Assembly (NCBI GenBank): GCA_033977065.1
Contig: JAXCHI010000004.1
Coordinates: 284,724-348,723, forward strand
Source of the DNA: Candidatus Algichlamydia australiensis
GTDB lineage: Bacteria > Chlamydiota > Chlamydiia > Chlamydiales > JAJFMI01
DNA length: 64,000 nucleotides
Reading direction: 5' to 3'
Below, piece after piece: positions 36,447 to 50,025 of this stretch (the first letter of the stretch is position 1; each line of letters starts with the position of its first letter). Made by a program: the position numbers and the translations under genes. The notes under the pieces are model-generated. The model saw only the letters and a list, made by a program, of their open reading frames with translations. It searched no databases and was not told the origin of the DNA.

Positions 36447-37382
36447 ATGAGTAATTCAATAGATCGTTACGATGTTGCAACATACGCACTAAATCTTGGT
36501 TTTGCTGCCGCGTCTGCTTGCGAGCACTCCCGTATAGGCAATGTATTAAGTAAATGGCGTATAAGTTTATTACTACTTGGAGCAACAACCTATGCTTTTA
36601 ATTATGTCCAATTTATTAGGACATTGTCCGATGACTTAAAAGATCAATTTAATCCTCACAAAAGCGAAGTCGATAACGATTTTTTTAAGTTCTCGCTTGC
36701 AATTACACCTATTTTTGCCGCTTTCTTGCTTCCAGTTGCTTGCCATTATTTGGGAAAGAGAGTAACTCACGCATTTCCTAGGGTTCAGTTGCAAGCGCCT
36801 AAGGGCTGTACTGCAGAATGGCTAGCTCCCTCTACATTTCACAACTTGGTTCAAGGATTTGCAGTGTCAAATGCACTTTTAAATCTTGCTGCAACTTTTG
36901 GTGGAAATGCGCACTCAAGATTATCTACAGGAGTTTTGTCTCTATTACACTTTGGCACAATACCTACACTTGCAAGTGGAAATCTAATTGAAGCGACTAC
37001 CACAAGAGATCATAGTGATGGAAAAACACAGTTCCTTTTCAGCTATATTTTTCGAGTAAAAAAACCTACTGATCCCTTGACCATAAGTGAAAGTGGTACA
37101 GTTTATTCCTATTCAAAAGTTATAGAAAATTTTTATAAAAATATTCAACAAATTAAACTTGATGATAGCACAGTTGAATGCTCTGAAAAAGCGATACCAA
37201 TTGTTGTTGGTGTGAATCCAACAATCACTAAAATCGTGAAATTGATTACCTATCACTTAACAGTTGCCAAAGACCTTATACCTGAAAAACTCAAAGGCTT
37301 TTCTCAACTCACTGCTTTTGTAAAAGATACGGGGCCCTTTGTTCCCAACGTCATCAAGGCAGCATCTATTGTGCCTTTGTAG
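36447..37382 (+). CDS. Hypothetical membrane protein, tandem paralog B
   Basis: 311 aa, with the same length class and N-terminal pattern as 35491-36432. Its RBS is ggaga. Its 3' end overlaps the uvrA 3' end by 17 nt. Confidence 0.6.
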   Translation: MSNSIDRYDVATYALNLGFAAASACEHSRIGNVLSKWRISLLLLGATTYAFNYVQFIRTLSDDLKDQFNPHKSEVDNDFFKFSLAITPIFAAFLLPVACHYLGKRVTHAFPRVQLQAPKGCTAEWLAPSTFHNLVQGFAVSNALLNLAATFGGNAHSRLSTGVLSLLHFGTIPTLASGNLIEATTTRDHSDGKTQFLFSYIFRVKKPTDPLTISESGTVYSYSKVIENFYKNIQQIKLDDSTVECSEKAIPIVVGVNPTITKIVKLITYHLTVAKDLIPEKLKGFSQLTAFVKDTGPFVPNVIKAASIVPL

Positions 37383-40300
37383 GTGAAATGATGTTTACTA
37401 CCTTTCCACCTTTCTCACCAGCTCCAGGCCCTAGCTCGATTTGGTAGTCAGCCGATTCGATGATATCGGAGTTGTGCTCGATCATAATAATGGTATGACC
37501 GCTATCGACAATTTTATGGAAAATTTTGAGGAGTTTTTCGATGTCGACACTGTGCAGGCCGATAGTCGGTTCGTCAAAGAGGTAGAGGGTGTGGCGTTTG
37601 GCTGGACGGACGAGTTCGCGAGAGAGACGCAGGCGCTGCGCTTCTCCGCCAGAGAGCGTTTGCACGCGCTGGCCTAAGGTGAGGTAGCCAAGTCCCACTT
37701 CTACTAAAACTTTTAGTGTCTTTTGAATTTTCGGAATTTTTGGGAGGAAGTCAATCGCTTCATTTACGGTGAGGTTGAGCAGTTGCCCGAGGTTTTTTCC
37801 TTTGTAGGTCACCTCAAGGGGAAGGGGAGCGAGGCGATTGCCATTACAGCTGTCACAGGTGATGGTCACAGCCGGCATTAGCTGTAGCTGGATTTTGCGT
37901 GTTCCCAGGCCCCAACACTTGCGACACATGCCTTTCATGTGGTTGTAGCTAAAATGGTAGGCTTTCAGGTTGCGCATGCGCGCTTCGGGTAGTTCAGCAA
38001 AAAAGCGGCGCAGAGGTGTAAGAAGATCGGAATAGGTGGTGATGTCAGCACGTGCAGTGTGTCCAATAGGAGATTGGTCAAGTGCAATGCATTTTTCGAT
38101 TTGCTTAAGCCCTGAGATTTTGCTTCCATGAATGGTAATGGTGTCGGGGGGTTGCCTATGCGTAAGCGCTTTTTCGACAGCTGGCCGTAGTAGGTGGTGC
38201 ATCAGCGTCGATTTTCCCGATCCTGAGACACCGGTAATGCAGGTAAAAATGTGCAGGGGAATGTCTAGAGAGATATTTTTAAGATTGTGCAGCGAAGCGT
38301 TTTCAATTTTTAAAACTTTTTTGGTAGGTTTGCGGTATTTGCAATCCACAGCGCTCTTTTCTCCAGAGAGGTAGGCGCCAGTAAGCGATTTCGGATCGCG
38401 TTTGATTTGCGCAATAGAGCCTTGTGCAATGATCTGCCCCCCTTTTTTTCCCGCTTCTGGGCCAAAATCGATGAGATAGTCGGCTGTGTTAATAGTAAGA
38501 GGGTCGTGCTCAACAAGAAGGAGAGTATTGCCGCTTTTACAGAGTTTTTTTAGTGCGCGGTTGAGTAGCGCGTTATTTTGCGGATGCAAGCCGATAGTGG
38601 GTTCGTCTAAAACATAGAGGCAGCCAGTTAGACCAGATCCAAGCTGACGCGCTAAATGAATGCGCTGTGTCTCCCCACCTGAAAGTGTAGGTGCGCTACG
38701 AGAGAGCGCGAGATACTCAAGTCCGATTTCCATCATAAATTTTAGGCGATGATCGATCTGCGAGAGCGTCTCATCGAGAAGGTTTTTCTTCTCTTTTGGA
38801 AGGGAGAGTTTTTTCAAGAATTGTACTGTTTGTGAGATGGGAAGCTCACACACCTCTGGAAGGGTTTTTCCTGCAACTTTTACCCCTCGTGCAAGGGGAT
38901 TCAAGCGCGCTCCGTTGCAGCTTGGACAGGGAGACTCGTCCATGTGTGGCAAGATCTCTTTGCGTAAATTATTTTTTGCCGCCTTTGCTCGCTTAGCAAA
39001 GAGCGTTTCAAAGCCGATCCATTTAAAAGAAATTTCTGCAAAAGTAAAGCTCTTTTCGCTACCTCTCATTAATAGTTTTTGCTGCTTATCTGAGAGGTCA
39101 CAGAGAGGGGTGTTGGGATCAATTTCTTCTTTTTCAAGAAATGCCTCAAAAAGCTCTAAAGCTTCATCAGAGAGACGATCTTTGCAGAGATAGTAGAAGA
39201 GTGTGATGGGAGGGCAACGCATGATTTTAGGAAAGCGAGTAAGATCTGCGCCCCACTGAATGCCAAGTCCCTGACAGTCAGGGCACATGCCCTCTTCAGA
39301 ATTGAAAGAGAAGGTGTGGGGTTTAATTTGGGGGTAGGAGCGTCCCGTTGAAGGAACCGCGAATTCTAAGTTAAAGAAAAGATCTTGATCATCAAGGGCT
39401 GCAATCAGTTTTCCTTCTCCACGCTCGCTCGCAAGGGAGACGGCCTCAAAGAGGCGTGGAGTGATGTCAGGTTTGATTACGATCCGATCGATGACAAGAT
39501 GGAACTCCTGTTTGACTCCGCGTGAGAAGGGGATTTCATCTTCCAAATCATAGGTCGTGCCATTGAGCCGCACGCGGCGAAACCCTTCTGCTTTGAGTCG
39601 CATAAGAAGAGAGGAAAAGTCTTCTCCATGCCGAAGAGTGAGTGGGGCTAAAATTTGCACACGCGTCTTTTCTGGAAGCTCTTGCAACTTCTTGCAAACA
39701 AACTCTTTGGTAATTGCTACAATTTTTTCACCCGTCTCAGGACAGAATGCTTCACCCAAATGCGCGTAAAGCAGGCGCAAATAGTCATAGACTTCTGTCA
39801 TGGTCCCAATCGTTGAGCGTGGATTGCCTGCGTGGCGCTTCTGTTCAATAGAAATTGCTGGAGATAGGCCCTCAATCAACTCTAATTTTGGCTTGGCCAT
39901 CTGCTTGACAAACTGGCGTGCGTAAGAGGGGAGAGACTCAATATAGCGACGCTGCCCTTCAGCATAAATTGTCTCAAAAGCAAGCGAACTCTTCCCCGAC
40001 CCAGAAGGTCCCGTACAAACCGTCATTTTGCCGCGCGGAATTGTGAGATCAATTCCTTTTAAATTATTTTGTTCTGCTCCCTTCACTACAATCTCTGTAT
40101 GCTTTGAGACTCTCTTTTTAGATGGTGCGCTGACTCTCTTTTTCTCCCCCAGCGCAATCCCAGTTGCCGTCTTTGCTTTGATGATCTGTTCCGGTGTGCC
40201 CTCAGCAAGAACATTTCCATCCTCCAAATCGATGACCCAATCGGCTACCTTGATCAAATCCAAATTGTGCTCAATAACAAGGACTGTATTGCCTTCGCTC

Positions 40301-42936
40301 ACAAGTCGCTCCAAAATGCGCAGCAAGCGGTCAATATCGCGAAAATGGAGACCTGTTGTCGGTTCATCTAAGATGTAAAGAGTTTGTCCCGTCGAGGGGC
40401 GAATGAGCTCTTTGGCAAGCTTGATGCGCTGCGCCTCCCCACCAGAAAGCGTGGTGGAGCTCTGGCCGATTTTCATGTAGCCGAGACCCACGTCGTTGAG
40501 AAGTTGCAATTTTTTGCGAATATTAGGAATTGCATCAAAGAACTCCAACCCTTCTCGCACACTCAAGCGCATCACGTCGTAGATCGATTTTCCCTTGTAA
40601 AGAACAGAGAGCGTTTTGGGATCAAAACGACGCCCGTCACAGAGAGGACAAGTTGCAAAACTATCCTCTAAAAAGTCCATATCGATACGTATCTGACCCA
40701 TTCCAGAGCATTTAGGACACGACCCCTCGCGCACATTAAAACTAAAACGACCTGAAGAAAACCCTTGCGCCTTAGCATCGGGAAGCGAAGCAAAGAGATT
40801 GCGAATATCGTCGAACAACTTCACATAAGTCGCAGGATTGGAACGCGGCGTGCGGCCAATGGGCGTTTGATCGATTGCAATAACCTTGTCCAGATGCTCG
40901 ATGCCCTCTAATGCCTTGTGCTTGGCGGGGCGTAGCAGCGATCGCTGTAATTTATTGGAAAGAGCAGGGTAGAGCGTATCAATAATCAGCGAAGATTTTC
41001 CCGCACCTGAGATTCCTGTTACTGCAACAAAAAGTCCAAGAGGAATTTCCGCATCCATCTTTTGCAAATTATTCGCCTCAGCGCCTCTGATCACTAGCCT
41101 TTTTTCTGTAGGCTTGCGGCGGCTTTTCGGAGTTGCAACTTTTTCTTTTCCCGAGAGGTAAGCACCCGTAACAGAGCGCGGGCTCTTGATCAGATCAGCC
41201 GGCTTGCCTTGTGCCACAATCTCACCGCCTTCAACACCTGCACCAGGACCCACATCGACAATCTCATCGGCCGCATAAATCGTCTCCTCATCGTGCTCAA
41301 CCACAATCACCGTGTTGCCTTGATCGCGCAAGTTCAAAAGCGTGCGAATGAGGCGCTCATTATCTGTCGGGTGCAAGCCAATTGAAGGCTCATCTAAAAT
41401 ATACGTAGTCCCAATCAGCCCCGCTCCAATTTGTGAAGCGAGGCGCACACGCTGCGCTTCGCCACCTGAGAGCGTTGCTGAAGTCCGCTCTAAAGAAATA
41501 TAGTGCAGGCCGACATCAAGGAGAAAATGCAGACGCCTCTGCAACTCCTTAATCATCTCAGCCCCGACTTTTTTCTCCATTTTGGAGAGCTTAAGCGCAT
41601 CAAAAAAATTTGCCGCCTCAGCAATTGTCATACTCGTGATATCGTGAATTGTCTTTTTTCCAAGCGTTGTCACCCGAGGGTAAGAGCGAATGCGCGCGCC
41701 CAGGCAGTCAGGACAGACCTGTTCGCTCATCATCTCTAGCATCCGCTGCTTGTACTTTTCGCTCTTAGCTTCATTAAAGCGTTTTTTAACCTCATGTAAA
41801 ACGCCCTTCCACTCCACATATTCAATCCAGCGCTTCTTAGACTTTGGATGGACAAACGTCATCTTCGTCCAGCGCTCCTCCGTCCCATGCAGAAAAATAT
41901 GCTTGGCACTCTTTGAAAGCTTTTTCCAAGGCTTCTTTACATTAAAATCAAAAATGCGGCCTAAATTGCGATAGATATTGCCCCAGAGTACCGTCTCAAA
42001 ACTGCCCGCAATTGCGATGCAGTCCTCACTAATACTCTTCTCTTCATCGATGATTTTTTCCTCATCAAAGACAAGAGTCGTGCCCAAACCCGAACAAGCC
42101 GGACACATGCCTTTCGGATGGTTAAAAGAGAAATCTTGCGGTTCAAGCGGGGGATAAGAAATTCCCGATTTAGCTGAATGCGCATGCGTAGAAAAAAGAT
42201 GTTCCTTGCCACTCTCCACTTCAAGACAGCTCATCACACCCTTGCCTAGCTCAAGAGCGCTACTTACCGCCTCTTTCAACCGCCCACGGTTTTCACGATC
42301 AACCTTCAATCGATCAACCACTAGATCGACATCGTGTGAGACACTTTTTTTAAGCGACATACCCTCTTCTAGCTCAACAATCTCGCCATCGACACGCACC
42401 CGCATGAACCCTTTGCGAAGTAGCTCCGCAAAATCTTCCTTAAACTCGCCCTTTTTACCCTTTGCAAACGGCGCCAATACAATTAGCTTTGTACCTGCCT
42501 TCAACTCACTAATCTGCTCTAAAATTTGCGTATTGCTCTGCGGCGTGACACGCTCCCCACTCTCCGGACAGTGCGCCACACCAATCCGCGCAAAAAGTAC
42601 CCGCAAATAGTCATAAATTCCCGTAATCGTCCCGACAGTTGACCTCGGACTCTTGTGCGTGGTCTTCTGCTCAATGGAAATTGTGGGAGAAATCCCGGTA
42701 ATCAGCTCCGCATCAGGCTTAGGGATATCGCCCATATACCGTCGCGCATACGTAGATAAAGATTCAATATAACGGCGCTGCCCTTCAGCATAGATCGTAT
42801 CAAACGCCAGCGAGCTTTTGCCTGAGCCAGAGACCCCGGTAAAGACAATCAATTGTCCCGGCTTTAGCTCTAAAGAAACTTTTTTAAGGTTATGTACAGA
42901 AACTTTTTGAAGTTGGATCTTAGGACTTTCGCTCAT
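37366..42936 (-). CDS. uvrA: Excinuclease ABC subunit A, double-length (two complete UvrA units fused)
   Basis: 1856 aa. GVSGSGKSSLAFDTIYAEGQRRYIESLS near residue 35 recurs as GPSGSGKSSLAFETIYAEGQRRYIESLP near residue 960. There are four ABC signature/Walker sets and zinc-finger Cys pairs. Confidence 0.95.
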   Translation of the reverse strand: MSESPKIQLQKVSVHNLKKVSLELKPGQLIVFTGVSGSGKSSLAFDTIYAEGQRRYIESLSTYARRYMGDIPKPDAELITGISPTISIEQKTTHKSPRSTVGTITGIYDYLRVLFARIGVAHCPESGERVTPQSNTQILEQISELKAGTKLIVLAPFAKGKKGEFKEDFAELLRKGFMRVRVDGEIVELEEGMSLKKSVSHDVDLVVDRLKVDRENRGRLKEAVSSALELGKGVMSCLEVESGKEHLFSTHAHSAKSGISYPPLEPQDFSFNHPKGMCPACSGLGTTLVFDEEKIIDEEKSISEDCIAIAGSFETVLWGNIYRNLGRIFDFNVKKPWKKLSKSAKHIFLHGTEERWTKMTFVHPKSKKRWIEYVEWKGVLHEVKKRFNEAKSEKYKQRMLEMMSEQVCPDCLGARIRSYPRVTTLGKKTIHDITSMTIAEAANFFDALKLSKMEKKVGAEMIKELQRRLHFLLDVGLHYISLERTSATLSGGEAQRVRLASQIGAGLIGTTYILDEPSIGLHPTDNERLIRTLLNLRDQGNTVIVVEHDEETIYAADEIVDVGPGAGVEGGEIVAQGKPADLIKSPRSVTGAYLSGKEKVATPKSRRKPTEKRLVIRGAEANNLQKMDAEIPLGLFVAVTGISGAGKSSLIIDTLYPALSNKLQRSLLRPAKHKALEGIEHLDKVIAIDQTPIGRTPRSNPATYVKLFDDIRNLFASLPDAKAQGFSSGRFSFNVREGSCPKCSGMGQIRIDMDFLEDSFATCPLCDGRRFDPKTLSVLYKGKSIYDVMRLSVREGLEFFDAIPNIRKKLQLLNDVGLGYMKIGQSSTTLSGGEAQRIKLAKELIRPSTGQTLYILDEPTTGLHFRDIDRLLRILERLVSEGNTVLVIEHNLDLIKVADWVIDLEDGNVLAEGTPEQIIKAKTATGIALGEKKRVSAPSKKRVSKHTEIVVKGAEQNNLKGIDLTIPRGKMTVCTGPSGSGKSSLAFETIYAEGQRRYIESLPSYARQFVKQMAKPKLELIEGLSPAISIEQKRHAGNPRSTIGTMTEVYDYLRLLYAHLGEAFCPETGEKIVAITKEFVCKKLQELPEKTRVQILAPLTLRHGEDFSSLLMRLKAEGFRRVRLNGTTYDLEDEIPFSRGVKQEFHLVIDRIVIKPDITPRLFEAVSLASERGEGKLIAALDDQDLFFNLEFAVPSTGRSYPQIKPHTFSFNSEEGMCPDCQGLGIQWGADLTRFPKIMRCPPITLFYYLCKDRLSDEALELFEAFLEKEEIDPNTPLCDLSDKQQKLLMRGSEKSFTFAEISFKWIGFETLFAKRAKAAKNNLRKEILPHMDESPCPSCNGARLNPLARGVKVAGKTLPEVCELPISQTVQFLKKLSLPKEKKNLLDETLSQIDHRLKFMMEIGLEYLALSRSAPTLSGGETQRIHLARQLGSGLTGCLYVLDEPTIGLHPQNNALLNRALKKLCKSGNTLLLVEHDPLTINTADYLIDFGPEAGKKGGQIIAQGSIAQIKRDPKSLTGAYLSGEKSAVDCKYRKPTKKVLKIENASLHNLKNISLDIPLHIFTCITGVSGSGKSTLMHHLLRPAVEKALTHRQPPDTITIHGSKISGLKQIEKCIALDQSPIGHTARADITTYSDLLTPLRRFFAELPEARMRNLKAYHFSYNHMKGMCRKCWGLGTRKIQLQLMPAVTITCDSCNGNRLAPLPLEVTYKGKNLGQLLNLTVNEAIDFLPKIPKIQKTLKVLVEVGLGYLTLGQRVQTLSGGEAQRLRLSRELVRPAKRHTLYLFDEPTIGLHSVDIEKLLKIFHKIVDSGHTIIMIEHNSDIIESADYQIELGPGAGEKGGKVVNIISPTKAQ

Positions 42937-42994
42937 AGGGGGAAGTATAAGAGATTTCTGTACTTTTATGCGAATTTAGATTATATTACTTCTT

Positions 42995-44545
42995 ATGAAT
43001 ATCGTGCCAGTAAGTCTAGAAGCAACTAAAAATTATTTTAATATAGATCGCGCAGGATGGAGCCAAACAGCAGGGAAGGTGAGTTCCTTTATCTTCTCAC
43101 ATAAGAGGGGGCTGTTGGGGTTGACTCTTATTCTCTTCCCATTTGTACTTGTCGCAAAGAAATATTATAACATTACAGACGTGTGGCCTCATCAAGTATT
43201 AATTGCGAATATTTTATATTCTTTACGTAATTATGTGCCGGAAAATTATCGCGTAGGGATTGAGCGGTATGTTGGTGAAGTCTATCCGGCAAATAAATTC
43301 TCTGAAGAAGATAGGGAAGAATTACAAGAGTGGGTTAATCAAGCACAACCTAGGCAAGCACAAGCTAGAGTAATTGGAATAATTGATTCTCAGGAATCAC
43401 GTCAGAGACTTATGAACTGTTTGCTACGAGGTAGTAAGGAACTGGAGTATGCACCTTCAAGTTTTTTAGAATTAAACGTTTTTGATAAGCTTTCGCACCT
43501 CCAGTCAATAGAATTTAATTCAGATGAAAAACTGGATCTTCCAGAGAAGATTCTAAATTTAAAAAATCTGCGTAGTTTGCGACTTGAAAATTTTAGAATT
43601 CCAGAAAATTTTGAATTTGAAAGACTTTCTAAAATCCAACAGCTTTCTCTAATTAAGTGCGATATTTCAAATGATGTACACTTGGAAAAACTCTTTTTTT
43701 TAAAAAAACTTCGTATTTCCGAATCTAAACTTGAAGCATTACCTTTTTTACCATTAAAAAATTTAGTTACATTAGATCTTTATTCCCTTGATCTTGCTGT
43801 TATTCCTGAATGGATCGGAGGTTTATCAAAATTAGCTAGTTTAACATTGACTAAATGCGCAGCTTTAAAAAGCCTACCAGAAGAAATTTATCGGCTGCCA
43901 AAGGGATGCAAAATAAACATATGGGCTTCTGGACTGGCTCATGCCCCTATTTTTGAGCAGACGACAAAAGAAGGTTATTCAGGACCTAAATTCTCTACAG
44001 AAAGTAGGACTAGTTCTTTCCCTTTTAGAAAGACTCCTTTTTTAAGATTTGGAGCTAGCTGGCTTGATGTAGTCAAAGAGCTTGACAAATGGATTCATGT
44101 AAATAAGGAGAATTCTCTTAGCCGTATAAGATTTCGAGATGAAATCATAAATAGAAGTTTTATTTTTGAGAATTTTAGTCAGGGTGACGAACTAGAGAAT
44201 AAAGCATACATTGACATGTTGGCATTTATTTTGAAAAAGAGTCGAGACACGGGTAAACCTTTTCAATCTTATTTTGAGTTTTGCCCAAGAAGCGTTGTTG
44301 AGTATGAAAGAACTCTCGAAATATTGGAATATATAGCAGATAAATATGCAGGCTCATACACAATGGCATTTTATAACTATAATCATCTGCCACTAGAAAT
44401 AGATTTTGAAAAATTAGGAGGGTTGCTTTATCAAAGAGAACGTTGCAGTAGGTTGTCGATTGAAGGATTTACCTTACGAAACTTCGGTTATCTCGATAGT
44501 CTACCGATCGAAAAATTATCTCTAGAAAATTGTGAAATTTTGTAA
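42995..44545 (+). CDS. Leucine-rich-repeat protein with an N-terminal TM anchor, paralog 1
   Basis: 516 aa. The TM segment is LLGLTLILFPFVLVA. LRRs include LKNLRSLRLENFRIPENFEFERLSKIQQLSL and LVTLDLYSLDLAVIPEWIGGLSKLASLTL. Confidence 0.8.
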   Translation: MNIVPVSLEATKNYFNIDRAGWSQTAGKVSSFIFSHKRGLLGLTLILFPFVLVAKKYYNITDVWPHQVLIANILYSLRNYVPENYRVGIERYVGEVYPANKFSEEDREELQEWVNQAQPRQAQARVIGIIDSQESRQRLMNCLLRGSKELEYAPSSFLELNVFDKLSHLQSIEFNSDEKLDLPEKILNLKNLRSLRLENFRIPENFEFERLSKIQQLSLIKCDISNDVHLEKLFFLKKLRISESKLEALPFLPLKNLVTLDLYSLDLAVIPEWIGGLSKLASLTLTKCAALKSLPEEIYRLPKGCKINIWASGLAHAPIFEQTTKEGYSGPKFSTESRTSSFPFRKTPFLRFGASWLDVVKELDKWIHVNKENSLSRIRFRDEIINRSFIFENFSQGDELENKAYIDMLAFILKKSRDTGKPFQSYFEFCPRSVVEYERTLEILEYIADKYAGSYTMAFYNYNHLPLEIDFEKLGGLLYQRERCSRLSIEGFTLRNFGYLDSLPIEKLSLENCEIL

Positions 44546-44583
44546 TTTTCAGACTTTTTCAAAAAAAATATTATAATATCCCT

Positions 44584-44655
44584 AAAGCCAATCAATTGTC
44601 CCATTTTTAGCTGCAAATAAATTTTTTTAAGTTGGACCTTAGGACCTTCGCTCAT
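44584..44655 (-). pseudogene. Relic of the uvrA 5' end (first ~24 codons), duplicated with the LRR gene unit
   Basis: The minus-strand atgagcgaaggtcctaaggtccaacttaaaaaaatttatttgcagctaaaaatgggacaattgattggcttt aligns with uvrA codons 1-32, with a 24 nt internal deletion. The flanking promoter region is also duplicated. Confidence 0.8.
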
Positions 44656-44712
44656 AGAGGAAGTATAAGAGATTTCTGTACTTTTATGCGAATTTAGATT
44701 ATACTACTTCTT

Positions 44713-46281
44713 ATGAATATCGTGCCAGTAAGTCTAGAAGCAACTAAAAATTATTTTAGCATAGATCGTGCAGGATGGAGCCAAACAGCACGACATGTGG
44801 GTTCCTTTGTGTTAAGCCACAAAAGGGAGCTGTTGGGAATTACCATTGCTTTCCTTGCGGTTGCTGGGGCTGCATCATTCGTTTATCAACAATATACAGA
44901 TGTTTGGCCGCATCAACTGTTTATTGCAAATCTCTTGTACCCCTTACGCAATTTCGTTCCGCAAAAAATAAAAGGAGGAATTGAAAGGTATAACAGCGAA
45001 GTCTATCCGGTGCACAAATTTACAGAAGAAGATCGACAAGAATTGCAAAATTGGGTGGAAAGAGTTCCCCTTGGTGTACATCACATGGGCGGAGCTAGAA
45101 GGGAGATCCGCGAAACTATAATGGAAGAGGTTCTTGCCGGTAAAAAGAGCCTGTCGAAGGAAGTTCCAGTAAATTTTTTACGGCTAAACGTGTTTGATAA
45201 ACTTTCCCATCTTCAAAAAATAAAAATTGTTTCGGGAGGAACGAAAATCGATCTACCTGAAGCGATCAAAAAATTAAAAAATCTCCAAACCTTACATCTA
45301 AACAAGTTAATAATTCCCGAAGATTTTCAATTTGCAGAATTTCCTAAATTGGAGTGCCTTTCTTTAGAATTTTGTGACGTTCCGTGTGGCCTTCAACTAG
45401 AGAATCTTAAGCATTTAAAGAAGCTTAGTCTTAGTTATAATTGTACACTTGGTGCACTCCCTTCAATTCCATCGAAAAATTTAGTATCGTTGGAGCTTTG
45501 TTGCACACTTTTGGCTTCTGTTCCAACTGCAGTCGGGGGCTTCTCAAAGTTAACTTTTTTAGATTTGAGCCATAATAGAGAAATGAAAAGCCTACCTGAG
45601 GAAATTTATCAATTATCAAAGAAATGTAAAATATTAATAGGGTGGTCTGCTATTGCTCTTGCGCCTGTCTTTCAAGAGATAATAAAAGAAGGCTATTCAG
45701 GGCCTCAATTTTTTGTTAATAGCACGCCTATTGATGAAGGCGATTATCATCTTCCTTTATCTGAAAATAAAAGTCATTCATTTTTGTCATTGGGATCTAA
45801 TTGGCTTGAAATAGTCAGAGAGCTTGATAAACTTGTTCATGACAACGTCCCTCTTCATAGATCTTTTCGAGAAAAAATTATACATAACAAATTGACCGAT
45901 TATAAATTTAGGCTAGGGGAGCATATGCGACAAGATAAGAAAGTTATCGACATGCTGGTATATATTTCGAATAACTGCGAAGCAGGAAGCCCAATACGTA
46001 ACTGTCACTTTCAATTTGAACCAATGTGTGTTTCAGATACGGAACAATCCATTAAAATAGCAAATTATATTATCGATAATTACAAAGAAAAATATTCATT
46101 CTCATTTAGGAAGCTTGGCCCCAGACCTCTAGAGATAAATTTAAGAGAATTGGTGGGCCTAGCGAATCAAACAGAACTCTGTAGTAGCCTGTCGATTAAA
46201 GGATTTACCTTGAGGAATTTTGATTATTTGGACACTTTATCGGTAGAAAAGCTTTCAATAGAAGATTGTGAAATTTTGTAA
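44713..46281 (+). CDS. Leucine-rich-repeat protein with an N-terminal TM anchor, paralog 2
   Basis: 522 aa, collinear with paralog 1. Of its first 26 codons, 25 are identical at the protein level, and it has the same C-terminal ending, C(E)IL. Confidence 0.8.
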   Translation: MNIVPVSLEATKNYFSIDRAGWSQTARHVGSFVLSHKRELLGITIAFLAVAGAASFVYQQYTDVWPHQLFIANLLYPLRNFVPQKIKGGIERYNSEVYPVHKFTEEDRQELQNWVERVPLGVHHMGGARREIRETIMEEVLAGKKSLSKEVPVNFLRLNVFDKLSHLQKIKIVSGGTKIDLPEAIKKLKNLQTLHLNKLIIPEDFQFAEFPKLECLSLEFCDVPCGLQLENLKHLKKLSLSYNCTLGALPSIPSKNLVSLELCCTLLASVPTAVGGFSKLTFLDLSHNREMKSLPEEIYQLSKKCKILIGWSAIALAPVFQEIIKEGYSGPQFFVNSTPIDEGDYHLPLSENKSHSFLSLGSNWLEIVRELDKLVHDNVPLHRSFREKIIHNKLTDYKFRLGEHMRQDKKVIDMLVYISNNCEAGSPIRNCHFQFEPMCVSDTEQSIKIANYIIDNYKEKYSFSFRKLGPRPLEINLRELVGLANQTELCSSLSIKGFTLRNFDYLDTLSVEKLSIEDCEIL

Positions 46282-46445
46282 TTTTCAGATTTCCTAAAAA
46301 ATATTTTAATATCCCTAAAGGCAATCAACTTTCCTAGATTCAATTATAACGAAAGTTAGTGAATTCAGATCAGAAGAGCTTTAATCCTATTGGAAGTATT
46401 GGGAATCTCTATACTTTATTACAAGTTCATGTTAAAATGTTCTCT

Positions 46446-47402
46446 ATGAATGCTACAAATTTAACTGAAACAAGTCTAAAAATATCAAAAAATATTTTTA
46501 ATTTTGATCATGCTGCATGGAGCCAGACGGCAGAGAAAGTGGGCTCTTTTTTCCATTCACACAGATTTCTAATGGCTAAAATAGTGTTGGGAGTGACTCT
46601 TTTAAATATTGTTACTATTATGGGCGCTGGATCTCTGATATATAGAAAAATGCGAGGTGTTTGGCCACATCAAGTACTTACTGCAAATATTTTATATCCT
46701 CTTCGTAATTATACACCTGAAAGTTGGAAAACAATCATTGAGAACTATAATGACGAAATCAACCCGGCAAATAAATTTACAGCAGAAGACAGAGAAGAAC
46801 TACAAGAGTGGGTTGATCAAGCAGAAGAGCGACCTGATAGAGGTGCAGGGATTCCTGATTCTCGGGATTTACGCCAAGGACTCATGAATCGTGTGCTAGA
46901 AGGAAAGAAGAATTTAGATTTTTATTTACGTAGGCCTTTAAACTATTGGGAGCAGGGGGGGCTTCCTGATGAAAGAGAAATAGTTGTTCCTCTAAGTTTT
47001 TTAGATTTAAAAGTATTTAATAAATTATCTCATATTTCTGATATTAGCATTAAATCAAATGAAAAACGCGATCCACCAGAGGAGATTTTAGATCTAAAAA
47101 ATCTTCGTAGTTTGACTCTTATAAATTGTACAATACCAGAAAACTTTGAGTTTGAAAAACTCCCTAAATTGGAAAAACTTTTCTTTTGGCGGTGCGATAT
47201 TCCAGATATTTTGTATTTGAAAAAGGTAAGCAATTTGCATCAAATTGGTATTGCAAATTGTACAATACCAGAAAACCTTCAGTTTGAAGAACCCTCTAAA
47301 TTTGAAAAACTTTTCATTGTTGATTGCAATATTCCAGATATTACGTTTTTGGAAGGGTTAAGCCATTTGCGTGGAATTGATATTGAAGATTGTATAATTT
47401 AA
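46446..47402 (+). CDS. Leucine-rich-repeat protein with an N-terminal TM anchor, paralog 3 (shorter, ends inside the LRR region)
   Basis: By alignment to the paralog N-termini (MNATNLTETSLKISKNIFNFDHAAWSQTAEKV vs MNIVPVSLEATKNYFNIDRAGWSQTAGKV), the start is ATG 46446 rather than 46359. It lacks the ~200 aa C-terminal region of paralogs 1 and 2. Confidence 0.7.
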   Translation: MNATNLTETSLKISKNIFNFDHAAWSQTAEKVGSFFHSHRFLMAKIVLGVTLLNIVTIMGAGSLIYRKMRGVWPHQVLTANILYPLRNYTPESWKTIIENYNDEINPANKFTAEDREELQEWVDQAEERPDRGAGIPDSRDLRQGLMNRVLEGKKNLDFYLRRPLNYWEQGGLPDEREIVVPLSFLDLKVFNKLSHISDISIKSNEKRDPPEEILDLKNLRSLTLINCTIPENFEFEKLPKLEKLFFWRCDIPDILYLKKVSNLHQIGIANCTIPENLQFEEPSKFEKLFIVDCNIPDITFLEGLSHLRGIDIEDCII

Positions 47403-47473
47403 ATTGCCATTCTGTAACCTAGAGGATCTTCCGCTTCAGATTACAGTTTTTTGTATAGTATTTGTTAGTTCAA

Positions 47474-47517
47474 CTGAAGTTGCTACCCAGTTTCTCCTAT
47501 AGAGAGGGGGATTTTTT
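47474..47517. repeat. Family-C repeat, half copy
   Basis: ctgaagttgctacccagtttctcctatagagagggggatttttt matches the reverse complement of 54931-54985 (ctcaagttgccactcagtttctcctatggagagagggattttt). Confidence 0.7.
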
Positions 47518-47617
47518 CTTTGCATATTCTCCGCAGATAATTAATCATATTAAATAATTGAATTCTTGTAACTTATCGCTTTTTTAGTTAAAATATTCCC
47601 ATAACAAGGTTACTCCT

Positions 47618-48310
47618 ATGCTAACTGTAAATGAATACTTTAATCACTCTTGTACGCTCGCCAACGCAGGAAAAGAGCGCCTGGTCTCCTATTTTAAACC
47701 TGTATCAAGCTATGCAGAAACGTTTTTTAGTGAAGGAGCGAAAGAGACAATTGCTAAAAATCGCGTTCTAATTATAACAGTTCTTTCAATTACAGCCCTA
47801 GGATTAACAGGGCTATCTGTTTATTACATTGCAAAGCGGGTCTTCAGTAAAACAACTTCCGATGCCAAACCTTCTCTTAAGAGGAGCCCAGAGTATGACA
47901 AAAATACAGGCAGGTATTCTAGTGCCGGGTGCTCTTTTGCTCTTCCTAATGGAATAAATCCCAAAGAGGAGGAGATAACATTTATCCTTCCGAGTGGTGT
48001 AAAGCTGACGTTTTTTCAATATAAAGACCGTACAAAGTCCACAATTGATGATGACTTGAGCGCGTATACTACTCATTATCAGAAAGGCTTGAATCAAGAA
48101 CCCAAAAAAGGTTCTCTTGATAACGGACTTAAGTATCTCGCAATCTCTCCGATTCATGTTGAAGGAAATCCCTATTTAAAATCCTATACTATCTACAACG
48201 GAGAGGATAGATATAGGTTTACGGCGACTCATATAGAGCAAGCAAAGATAAAAGAGAGTATTGAAATGAATGCAATTTTAGAATCATTTACCCTTACTAA
48301 GGAGAGCTAA
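47618..48310 (+). CDS. Hypothetical single-TM protein, family member 1 of 3
   Basis: 230 aa. The pattern FFSEGAKETIAKNRVLIITVLSITALGLTGLSVYYI is shared with the next two genes. Confidence 0.65.
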   Translation: MLTVNEYFNHSCTLANAGKERLVSYFKPVSSYAETFFSEGAKETIAKNRVLIITVLSITALGLTGLSVYYIAKRVFSKTTSDAKPSLKRSPEYDKNTGRYSSAGCSFALPNGINPKEEEITFILPSGVKLTFFQYKDRTKSTIDDDLSAYTTHYQKGLNQEPKKGSLDNGLKYLAISPIHVEGNPYLKSYTIYNGEDRYRFTATHIEQAKIKESIEMNAILESFTLTKES

Positions 48311-48311
48311 A

Positions 48312-49016
48312 ATGGCAGCTATAGGAACTACACTTTCCATAGCAGGGAGCGCTGCTCAAGCTTTACCTGGAGCAAACACTAACCAAGCAAAGACAATTGC
48401 TAACAGATTCTTCAACAATGATATAAAAAAAACATTTGTGCAAAACCGCACTCTTATTTTCGCTACTCTTACAGTAGTAACTTTGTCATCTACTGTACTC
48501 GCTATCTATTTTGTTTATCAAAAAAATGTAACCCTCAATAAAACAGATAAAGAAAATGAGTTCACGATTCAAATCAGTGGAAATCGTGTTTCTGTTTCTC
48601 CCTCAGGTTTTACTTTTCAGATTCCTTCAAGTACAAAACAACACGCAAATCAGAAATTTTTGCTACCTGAAGATTTAACACTACAATTTTCAGTCTCTAA
48701 GACGAACAAGAGCATTGGTGATTATGTGGAAGAATTTAAAGATAATGCATGTTCAGGAAAGACGGAAAAACCGATAAGTGTAAATGGAAGATTAAGAACT
48801 TCATACGCAGGAGAGTTTGTTCCACAATTGTTTAGCGTTAATGGGGTTCAGGTTCTAGAACGTCGCCCTAAAAAAGTGCTTGAGGGAGTGTTTGAGCGGA
48901 GCTATTACATAGTAGGTGCAGGTCGCCTCTACCTACTAAAATTTTCTCACGAAAGTGATCCGTCAAAACTAGAAACTTTACAAAATGTTTTAAAATCAAT
49001 AGTTTTTCATAATTAG
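48312..49016 (+). CDS. Hypothetical single-TM protein, family member 2 of 3
   Basis: 234 aa with FFNNDIKKTFVQNRTLIFATLTVVTLSSTVLAIYFV. Its ATG lies 1 nt after the previous stop and has the RBS aaggagag. Confidence 0.65.
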   Translation: MAAIGTTLSIAGSAAQALPGANTNQAKTIANRFFNNDIKKTFVQNRTLIFATLTVVTLSSTVLAIYFVYQKNVTLNKTDKENEFTIQISGNRVSVSPSGFTFQIPSSTKQHANQKFLLPEDLTLQFSVSKTNKSIGDYVEEFKDNACSGKTEKPISVNGRLRTSYAGEFVPQLFSVNGVQVLERRPKKVLEGVFERSYYIVGAGRLYLLKFSHESDPSKLETLQNVLKSIVFHN

Positions 49017-49025
49017 AGACTTAAG

Positions 49026-49748
49026 GTGACAACTGTAGGAAATATTATTACAGAAGCAAGCAAAGCCACTCAGGGTTTACCTGCAGCAAAAATGGACCGA
49101 GCGAGTTTTGTTGCTAGTACGTTTTTTAGCGGAGGTATGCGCAACTTTATTGCTGAGAATAGATCATTCGTTATTGCGCTTTCTGCAGCCACGCTATTTG
49201 GTACAGCTTATTTAGTTCATAAAATGATATCTGAAAAAACTGGAGTTAAGTATAACATCCAATTTGACCTTCCTGACGGAGTAAAAAAGGCTGATTTAGA
49301 AAAATCTATCAATCTGGAAGTGGCCAAAGAGAGTGCAAAAAAAGAAATTACCGCTCGTCAAAAAGATGGCATTGTTTTTACTGATGAAGAAATAGCCTTT
49401 CTTTGTGCCGATCTGATAGAAATACAGCTATTTAAAAAGCCTAGTGCAAAAGAGTTATATGTATTTTGTTCCATCCAAAGCAGAGATCAAACGTTTGATT
49501 TTTCACAAATTCATACTGTTTGGACGAAATTCTATGGAAAAGATTTTGTAGAATCAACGCTCTTAACTTTGACAAGTGGGGAAAAAGCCGTCCGTTTTAG
49601 GGTGTCAGGTAAAGAAGCTTCTGAAATTGTCATGATTGAGAAAGGGGGGTTCTTTTACGGGCTCTGTTTTCCTTCTTCTGAAGTTCAGCTATTAACGTTT
49701 CGGGCTGATGTAACAAATCTGATCAATTCAATCACATTTCCCGAATAA
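49026..49748 (+). CDS. Hypothetical single-TM protein, family member 3 of 3
   Basis: 240 aa with a GTG start and FFSGGMRNFIAENRSFVIALSAATLFGTAYLV. Confidence 0.6.
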   Translation: MTTVGNIITEASKATQGLPAAKMDRASFVASTFFSGGMRNFIAENRSFVIALSAATLFGTAYLVHKMISEKTGVKYNIQFDLPDGVKKADLEKSINLEVAKESAKKEITARQKDGIVFTDEEIAFLCADLIEIQLFKKPSAKELYVFCSIQSRDQTFDFSQIHTVWTKFYGKDFVESTLLTLTSGEKAVRFRVSGKEASEIVMIEKGGFFYGLCFPSSEVQLLTFRADVTNLINSITFPE

Positions 49749-49798
49749 AATTCTGAATAGAAGCAAAAAGCGTTTTCTGTAATTAGCTCAAAAGTCTG

Positions 49799-50025
49799 TT
49801 TAGGGGTGTTCTCTTAATTTATGAATTTGAGGGGTGGTTTTCTTTTTAGAAGAAATTTATTATAGAGGGTAAAAGCAGCTTGATAAAACTCAAGTTACTA
49901 CCTAGTCTCTCCAGAAGGGGATGGGGGTAGCAACTTGAGTTTGATAAAATCGGTGAAATCTGAATAGCAAATCTACTCAGAAAGAAAACCGAACAGCAAG
50001 TTCAAAAATTCAGAGAACACCTCAA
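49799..50025. repeat. ~227 bp long imperfect palindrome with a family-C core, abutting the pyk start codon
   Basis: The outer arms are tttaggggtgttctcttaattt and aaattcagagaacacctcaaa. The inner arms are ggttttcttttt and agaaagaaaacc. The core is aaactcaagttactacc-tagtctctccagaaggggatgg-ggtagcaacttgagttt. Confidence 0.75.

Follow-up and report, generated by a model that had tools for sequence, protein, structure and literature searches.

A block of near-identical DNA, ~160-230 nt long, joins the 5' ends of two otherwise strongly diverged leucine-rich repeat (LRR) genes in 'Candidatus Algichlamydia australiensis', a Simkaniaceae symbiont of the dinoflagellate Cladocopium represented by a metagenome-assembled genome (MAG; PMC11317633), and this block is very probably a gene-conversion tract, the product of homologous recombination, ectopic and non-reciprocal, between repeat units 1 and 2 of a tandem array. 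The DNA analysed (the window) is a stretch of 64,000 nucleotides (nt) of contig JAXCHI010000004.1. It holds three tandem, lineage-restricted LRR genes, here g1, g2 and g3, all on the + strand and divergent from uvrA; their products agree at 100% identity with SNF33_07190, SNF33_07195 and SNF33_07200 of the MAG, encoded on a 497-kb contig. Each gene belongs to a repeat unit made up of an antisense uvrA 5' end (~33 codons), a short intergenic region, the LRR gene itself and ~40-50 nt of 3' flank. The array is an old tandem triplication, with unit start-to-start spacings of 1743 and 1733 nt (repeat family D8), and the uvrA 5' end forms part of its units. The process called for is ordinary ectopic conversion between tandem paralogs at a previously undescribed locus, with no new mechanism and no new kind of signal.

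The two genes concerned are g1 (42995..44545, + strand; an open reading frame (ORF) of 516 aa, SNF33_07190) and g2 (44713..46281, + strand; ORF of 522 aa, SNF33_07195). A preliminary description of this DNA had noted that 42943-43072 and 44661-44790 differ at four of 130 positions, and a gapless alignment confirmed the count; the differing sites, given as g1/g2, are 42986 (T/C), 43041-43042 (AT/GC) and 43051 (C/T). The abrupt fall that it placed after codon 26 is equally real: codons 1-26 of g1 (42995..43072, + strand) match those of g2 at 75 of 78 positions, the following 78 positions (43073-43150) at 46, i.e. 59-60%, and the first 30 nt past codon 26 at 18. The partner of this part of the block in unit 2, as aligned, is the intergenic copy together with g2 codons 1-26 (44656..44790, + strand). 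A maximum chi-square scan with two breakpoints, run over the complete alignment of the units, finds a discrete segment at 42863-43072, with 94% identity inside it and 61% outside; the observed value was 78.9 against a permutation maximum of 20.6, and 0 of 300 site permutations reached it. The three longest identical runs in the unit alignment (54, 45 and 21 nt) all fall within the block, and its identity is far beyond chance.

The block is also larger than first described, extending leftward through the intergenic region common to uvrA and g1 (42937..42994, 58 nt by alignment) into uvrA codons 1-8 (42913..42936, - strand). Intergenic positions 42941-42994 are identical to 44659-44712 at 53 of 54 sites, and 42913-42938, mostly uvrA codons 1-8, agree with unit 2 at 24 of 26. 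Left of a 24-nt indel lies a further zone of homology, apparently older, at 42840..42888 (- strand; uvrA codons ~17-33), which matches 44583-44631 at 41 of 49 positions (84%); its divergence is significantly higher than elsewhere in the block (8/49 vs 6/158 mismatches, p=0.005). The tract that stands at 92-98% identity is bounded on the left by the 24-nt indel and the unit end, and on the right by 43072/43073. A mobile element was considered as the identity of the block and rejected, because the block sequence occurs in the window at two homologous positions only.

What makes this leftward extension informative is that each LRR unit carries an antisense uvrA 5' end, a feature overlooked in the earlier work. 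The real uvrA (37366..42936, - strand; ORF divergent from g1) encodes a fused double UvrA of 1856 aa, the N-terminus of which, MSESPKIQLQKVSVHNLKKVSLELKPGQLIVFTGVSGSGKSS, contains a Walker A motif; its double length is visible in the DNA as internal repeats (repeat families D7 and D10). Fossils of approximately the first 25 uvrA codons are found upstream of both g2 and g3, and the tandem duplication unit therefore began inside uvrA. The fossil upstream of g2 (44583..44655, - strand) has retained its ATG and suffered an 8-codon deletion; it reads MSEGPKVQLKKIYLQLKMGQLIGF where the real uvrA has MSESPKIQLQKVSVHNLKKVSLELKPGQLIVF, and it opens an antisense ORF of 55 codons (44655..44488) that extends into the end of g1. 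It is dead, codes for nothing and has no evident function. The one upstream of g3 (46316..46364, - strand) is more decayed, with 67% identity to 42840-42888. Within the tract the differences in the uvrA frame are S4G and I7V, and next to the indel Q10K and V12I, all of them amino-acid changes in the fossil copy.

The indel itself consists of 24 nt (8 codons; 42889..42912, - strand) which the alignment places in the real uvrA only and which neither the unit-2 nor the unit-3 fossil has. The distance from TAAAG, at the unit start, to GGAAGTAT is accordingly 101 nt in unit 1 versus 76 and 76 nt in units 2 and 3. The deletion probably arose by slippage, since the 24-nt piece is flanked by two imperfect direct repeats, AAGAAACTTTTTTAAG and CAGAAACTTTTTGAAG; repeat families D8 and D12 overlap on 44612-44631.

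Two explanations of the sharp boundary had been proposed at the outset, a recent conversion tract and strong constraint on the leader and first codons; the former is supported by the identity of silent, intergenic and fossil sites, by its absence from g3 and by conflicting site patterns, while constraint alone fails to account for the nucleotide identity. The bodies of g1 and g2 have diverged to near saturation at silent sites. Estimated separately, the proportion of synonymous differences (pS) and synonymous divergence (dS) between the two genes are 0.12 and 0.13 for codons 1-26, and 0.63 and 1.36 for the remaining gene, a contrast that speaks for conversion. Where both proteins have the same residue, their codons agree at 22 of 23 positions within the block, but over the body at 126 of 223 only (Fisher p=9e-5). 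Even the best-conserved stretches of the body proteins (70-80% identical) share just 33-71% of such codons, and because these conserved stretches share so few, selection at the protein level in g1 and g2 evidently does not yield nucleotide identity.

The third gene, g3 (46446..47402, + strand; ORF of 318 aa, SNF33_07200), is truncated and lies outside the identity block. As the preliminary description had it, g3 keeps the N-terminal motif without the nucleotide identity: over codons 1-26 it is 54-58% identical to g1 and g2 as protein and 68-69% as DNA, and its intergenic region matches theirs at 33-35 of 58 positions. In the shared body g3 is as close to g1 (61% nt identity) as g2 is (60%), and informative sites there divide 132:143:81 among the patterns 12|3, 13|2 and 23|1, versus 23:2:1 in the block, a significant conflict (Fisher p=1e-5 and 5e-4). 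The 24-nt deletion likewise groups units 2 and 3 apart from unit 1, in conflict with the grouping given by the block. The locus therefore presents what is looked for in gene conversion, namely a discrete segment, homogenised silent, non-coding and non-functional sites, and incongruence with the rest of the gene. It is also recombination-prone, as seen in the tandem array, in a 132-nt duplication within g3 and in a deletion between direct repeats.

The course of events may be pictured as follows. Some time after the triplication, a later event would have overwritten ~160 nt (42913-43072) of one unit with the sequence of the other, presumably by RecA-type exchange between misaligned copies, leaving both with near-identical uvrA starts, intergenic DNA and LRR codons 1-26. 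The 24-nt heterology would have stopped the tract on the left; on the right it ends sharply at codon 26/27. The 49-nt zone of 84% identity beyond the heterology could be the trace of an earlier event of this type. Unit 1 is the probable donor, since the uvrA start that it carries has to stay functional; a donor test with g3 as outgroup split the sites 2 to 1 and was uninformative on direction. A composite history is plausible, in which control elements and a conserved N-terminus slowed the divergence of the 5' end, leaving it similar enough to keep recombining, while the bodies escaped. Selection on the promoter or the N-terminus may thus help to keep the region convertible, and would not by itself explain the identity.

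Some real constraint on the region is suggested by an inverted repeat, AAGTA-N13-TACTT, which is found upstream of g1, g2 and g3 alike (42943-42965, 44661-44683 and 46394-46416), 29-52 nt before each start codon, and which is a candidate operator or 5' hairpin. Its arms are invariant and its spacer differs in g3; three copies were found in the window versus 0.34 expected, and it occurs nowhere else there. No sigma-70 consensus was seen in the block at 9 or more of 12 matches, and the labels 'promoter' and '5' UTR' given to this DNA earlier are putative; relaxed scans returned only weak promoter-like hexamers on both strands, none of which we would claim as a promoter. A structured RNA leader or mRNA secretion signal was considered and rejected: in single-sequence folds the leader and first codons fold no better than shuffles (z -0.44 to +1.40), and a comparison of 42700-47700 with Rfam gave nothing at E<=1. 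The consensus fold of the three copies holds only a small hairpin, with one-sided changes and no two-sided compensatory change.

As a putative type III signal, the N-terminal segment is characterised by its position and its composition (35% S/T/N/Q/P, two acidic and two basic residues). It is conceivable, if rather doubtful, that the whole region is selectively maintained as an 'address cassette', a bidirectional control region with AAGTA-N13-TACTT joined to a 26-residue type III signal. If so, recombination would keep the cassette uniform across the diversifying LRR effectors of a dinoflagellate-infecting chlamydia, and the duplicated uvrA start and promoter in the g2 copy could drive antisense transcription, or the 55-codon ORF, into the end of g1.

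Several considerations weigh against gene conversion. The recombination tests used were our own equivalents of GENECONV and of the maximum chi-square method rather than GENECONV or RDP, and they compare three paralogs from one genome only. Neither protein nor DNA scans found an orthologue or a second strain, and with a single genome and no such relative, concerted evolution is not directly demonstrable and the tree is unrootable. On the right side of the tract the flanking identity of ~60% offers little perfect homology with which to start an exchange of the RecA type. The block furthermore coincides with the shared intergenic region, the inverted repeat and the N-terminal motif, and could be functionally constrained; third-position identity of g3 over codons 1-26 is mildly raised, at 0.69 vs 0.41-0.53 in the body.

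These last points lead to an alternative without recombination, in which long-term purifying selection on the nucleotide sequence itself would have kept promoter, leader and codons 1-26 frozen since the duplication, in the role of a type III secretion signal, an mRNA signal or both, and g3 would have been released. The block does span the shared intergenic region and an N-terminal motif kept in 3/3 proteins, its inverted repeat is kept in 3/3 copies, g3 has the look of a decaying copy, and members of chlamydial LRR families have N-terminal type III signals that function in a heterologous assay (PMC4209131). Such selection would, however, have to keep ~160 contiguous bases, including 22 of 23 codon choices, 53 of 54 intergenic bases and a non-coding uvrA fossil, and other strongly conserved protein stretches of the same two genes show no codon conservation. 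It would further have to give way to 60% identity within one codon, though the protein is moderately conserved beyond that point, and to act where no significant RNA structure and no Rfam family was found. We consider it improbable.

A newer structural event, in the form of an unequal-crossover chimera or of a freshly inserted segment, bounded by the uvrA 5' end and g1 codon 26 and placed before an older g2 body, is a shade less probable still. It would resemble the 'terminal reassortment' of effector N-termini, and such reassortment of promoters and N-terminal signals is reportedly on record for type III effectors (Stavrinides et al. 2006); the tract reaches nearly to the left end of the repeat unit, and unequal exchange is to be expected in a tandem array. 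Unit 3, however, has a decayed uvrA fossil and the same junction of 3' flank to fossil as unit 2, and the fossil upstream of g2 is on that account old. The leftmost 49 nt (84%), significantly more diverged than the core, fit a single fresh insertion poorly, and a single unequal crossover would leave two units identical to the right of the breakpoint, whereas no such pair is seen. Least probable of all, and very unlikely, is an artefact of assembly or polishing in which short reads of one copy corrected the other, for while the MAG was built from long and short reads (PMC11317633) and the genes are held by one assembly only, the copies still differ at 4/130 positions, with an indel and more mismatches leftward, cross-mapping presupposes copies that are already similar, and the tract edge is clean and in frame.

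As for the proteins themselves, Pfam recognises LRR families only, and sequence and fold searches of the PDB return generic LRR proteins only (Leptospira LIC proteins, SHOC2, internalins), by way of the LRR part alone. The AlphaFold model of the g1 protein is confident over residues ~140-320 only, with residues 1-62 at pLDDT <50, disordered or of low confidence; compared through Foldseek it again matched generic LRR proteins and gave no clue to the N- or C-terminal modules. Each of the three proteins has a single hydrophobic segment at residues ~39-59. By simple hydropathy, a crude guide, this is one segment of ~19-25 residues and not the bilobed hydrophobic domain (~40-60 residues) of the Inc type. 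There was no match to the NEL domain (PF14496) at E<=0.1, and Pfam detected no F-box, BTB or U-box domain in the g1-g3 proteins, so that they cannot be filed with either the IpaH/SspH effectors or the NEX1/PEX1 families. A word-indexed search of 5.8 billion protein clusters with g1 returned only the three paralogs and generic LRR proteins, and an HMMER profile of the N-terminal 155 residues, run against 1.84 billion representatives, nothing beyond the three paralogs except one spurious repeat protein (P0017). Scans of genome and metagenome contigs with a degenerate DNA pattern gave nothing but chance matches in unrelated taxa; the array's own copies were not recovered, and the source genome is apparently outside those collections.

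Other features of the array may be noted. A second, milder patch of similarity covers the last 8 codons of g1, its stop and its 3' flank (44522..44605, + strand), which match the end of g2 (46258-46338) at 69 of 84 positions, with 67% identity before the patch and 49% after it; it contains a promoter-like TTCAGA-18-TATAAT (44548-44577) that would face g2. The g1 gene has a 15-nt tandem repeat, CAAGCACAACCTAGG, in 1.9 copies (43340-43368), which encodes QPRQAQAR and is absent from g2 and g3. The g3 gene is without the ~200 C-terminal residues found in g1 and g2 and has an internal tandem duplication of 132 nt (47123-47386; 2.1 copies, 80% identical) that doubles two LRRs. Homology of its end (IEDCII) to the ends of g1 and g2 (ENCEIL, EDCEIL) was considered and dropped, because the DNA is only 39-40% identical and the tail of g3 duplicates LRRs from earlier in the same gene. 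Only one hairpin in the array, that after g3 (47492-47521), looks like a terminator and has a T run; as there is none after g1 or g2, the three genes may be co-transcribed. G+C falls from ~0.42-0.48 in the flanking housekeeping genes to 0.34-0.37 over the LRR array and the next paralog trio (42000-50000). The products of this second tandem trio (47618-49748) are 230, 234 and 240 aa long; all three have one hydrophobic segment at residues ~47-68 and are without a Pfam match; its members are 37-43% identical as DNA, and no comparable identity block was found among them.

Three lineage-restricted LRR membrane proteins are candidate host-interaction genes in this symbiont, and they go unmentioned in the genome paper (PMC11317633), which lists ankyrin, WD40 and TPR proteins and no LRR proteins. 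The locus would indicate active homologous recombination in the genome of a chlamydia, only recently described, that lives in symbiosis with coral-associated dinoflagellates. It also provides a clean test case, as studies of effector families often cannot tell recombination from purifying selection in conserved N-termini; here the two can be separated, because silent sites, intergenic DNA and a uvrA start that is no longer functional all lie within the tract. That fossil, an internal neutral control, is the useful feature of the locus.

Classic cases of conversion between bacterial paralogs are tufA/tufB in Salmonella and babA/babB in Helicobacter pylori, with near-identical ends around divergent middles. 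The array resembles such systems in having a short, sharply bounded, near-identical tract inside diverged paralogs of one genome, in which silent and non-coding sites are homogenised and which is incongruent with the rest of the gene. It differs in that a single genome represents it, in that the tract spans the divergent uvrA start and its fossil, an unusual internal control, and in showing no sign that phase or antigenic variation is under way. Ectopic conversion and concerted evolution of paralogs in bacteria have been reviewed by Santoyo & Romero (2005), as cited in PMC4209131.

A second likeness is to modular effectors, in which an upstream region and N-terminal segment behave as a module across proteins that otherwise differ. 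This is the pattern of the terminal reassortment of type III effectors that Stavrinides, Ma and Guttman reportedly described in 2006, and of the Salmonella LRR effectors SspH1, SspH2 and SlrP, which share an N-terminal translocation domain. In contrast to terminal reassortment, the module here would have been swapped between homologous tandem copies and not joined to unrelated genes, and unlike SspH1, SspH2 and SlrP, the g1-g3 proteins are without an NEL ligase domain and are at most putative secreted proteins.

The closest parallel is with NEX1 of Neochlamydia and PEX1 of Protochlamydia, lineage-specific families of LRR effectors in environmental chlamydiae (Domman et al. 2014, PMC4209131), of which the members tested have functional type III signals (PMC4209131). 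Like these, g1-g3 are chlamydial, lineage-restricted and tandem, with a conserved N-terminal part and variable C-terminal LRRs. They differ in that no F-box, BTB or U-box domain was detected in them, that their N-terminus is followed by a hydrophobic segment, that they number three members only and that they find no more than generic LRR matches outside their own genome. In NEX1a it was the N-terminal part that was most frequently scored as recombinant, and the authors were unable to exclude purifying selection (PMC4209131). The N-terminal part of g1 and g2 is a recombinant-looking segment of the same kind, and here, unlike in the NEX1a study, silent sites and a pseudogene fossil separate conversion from selection.

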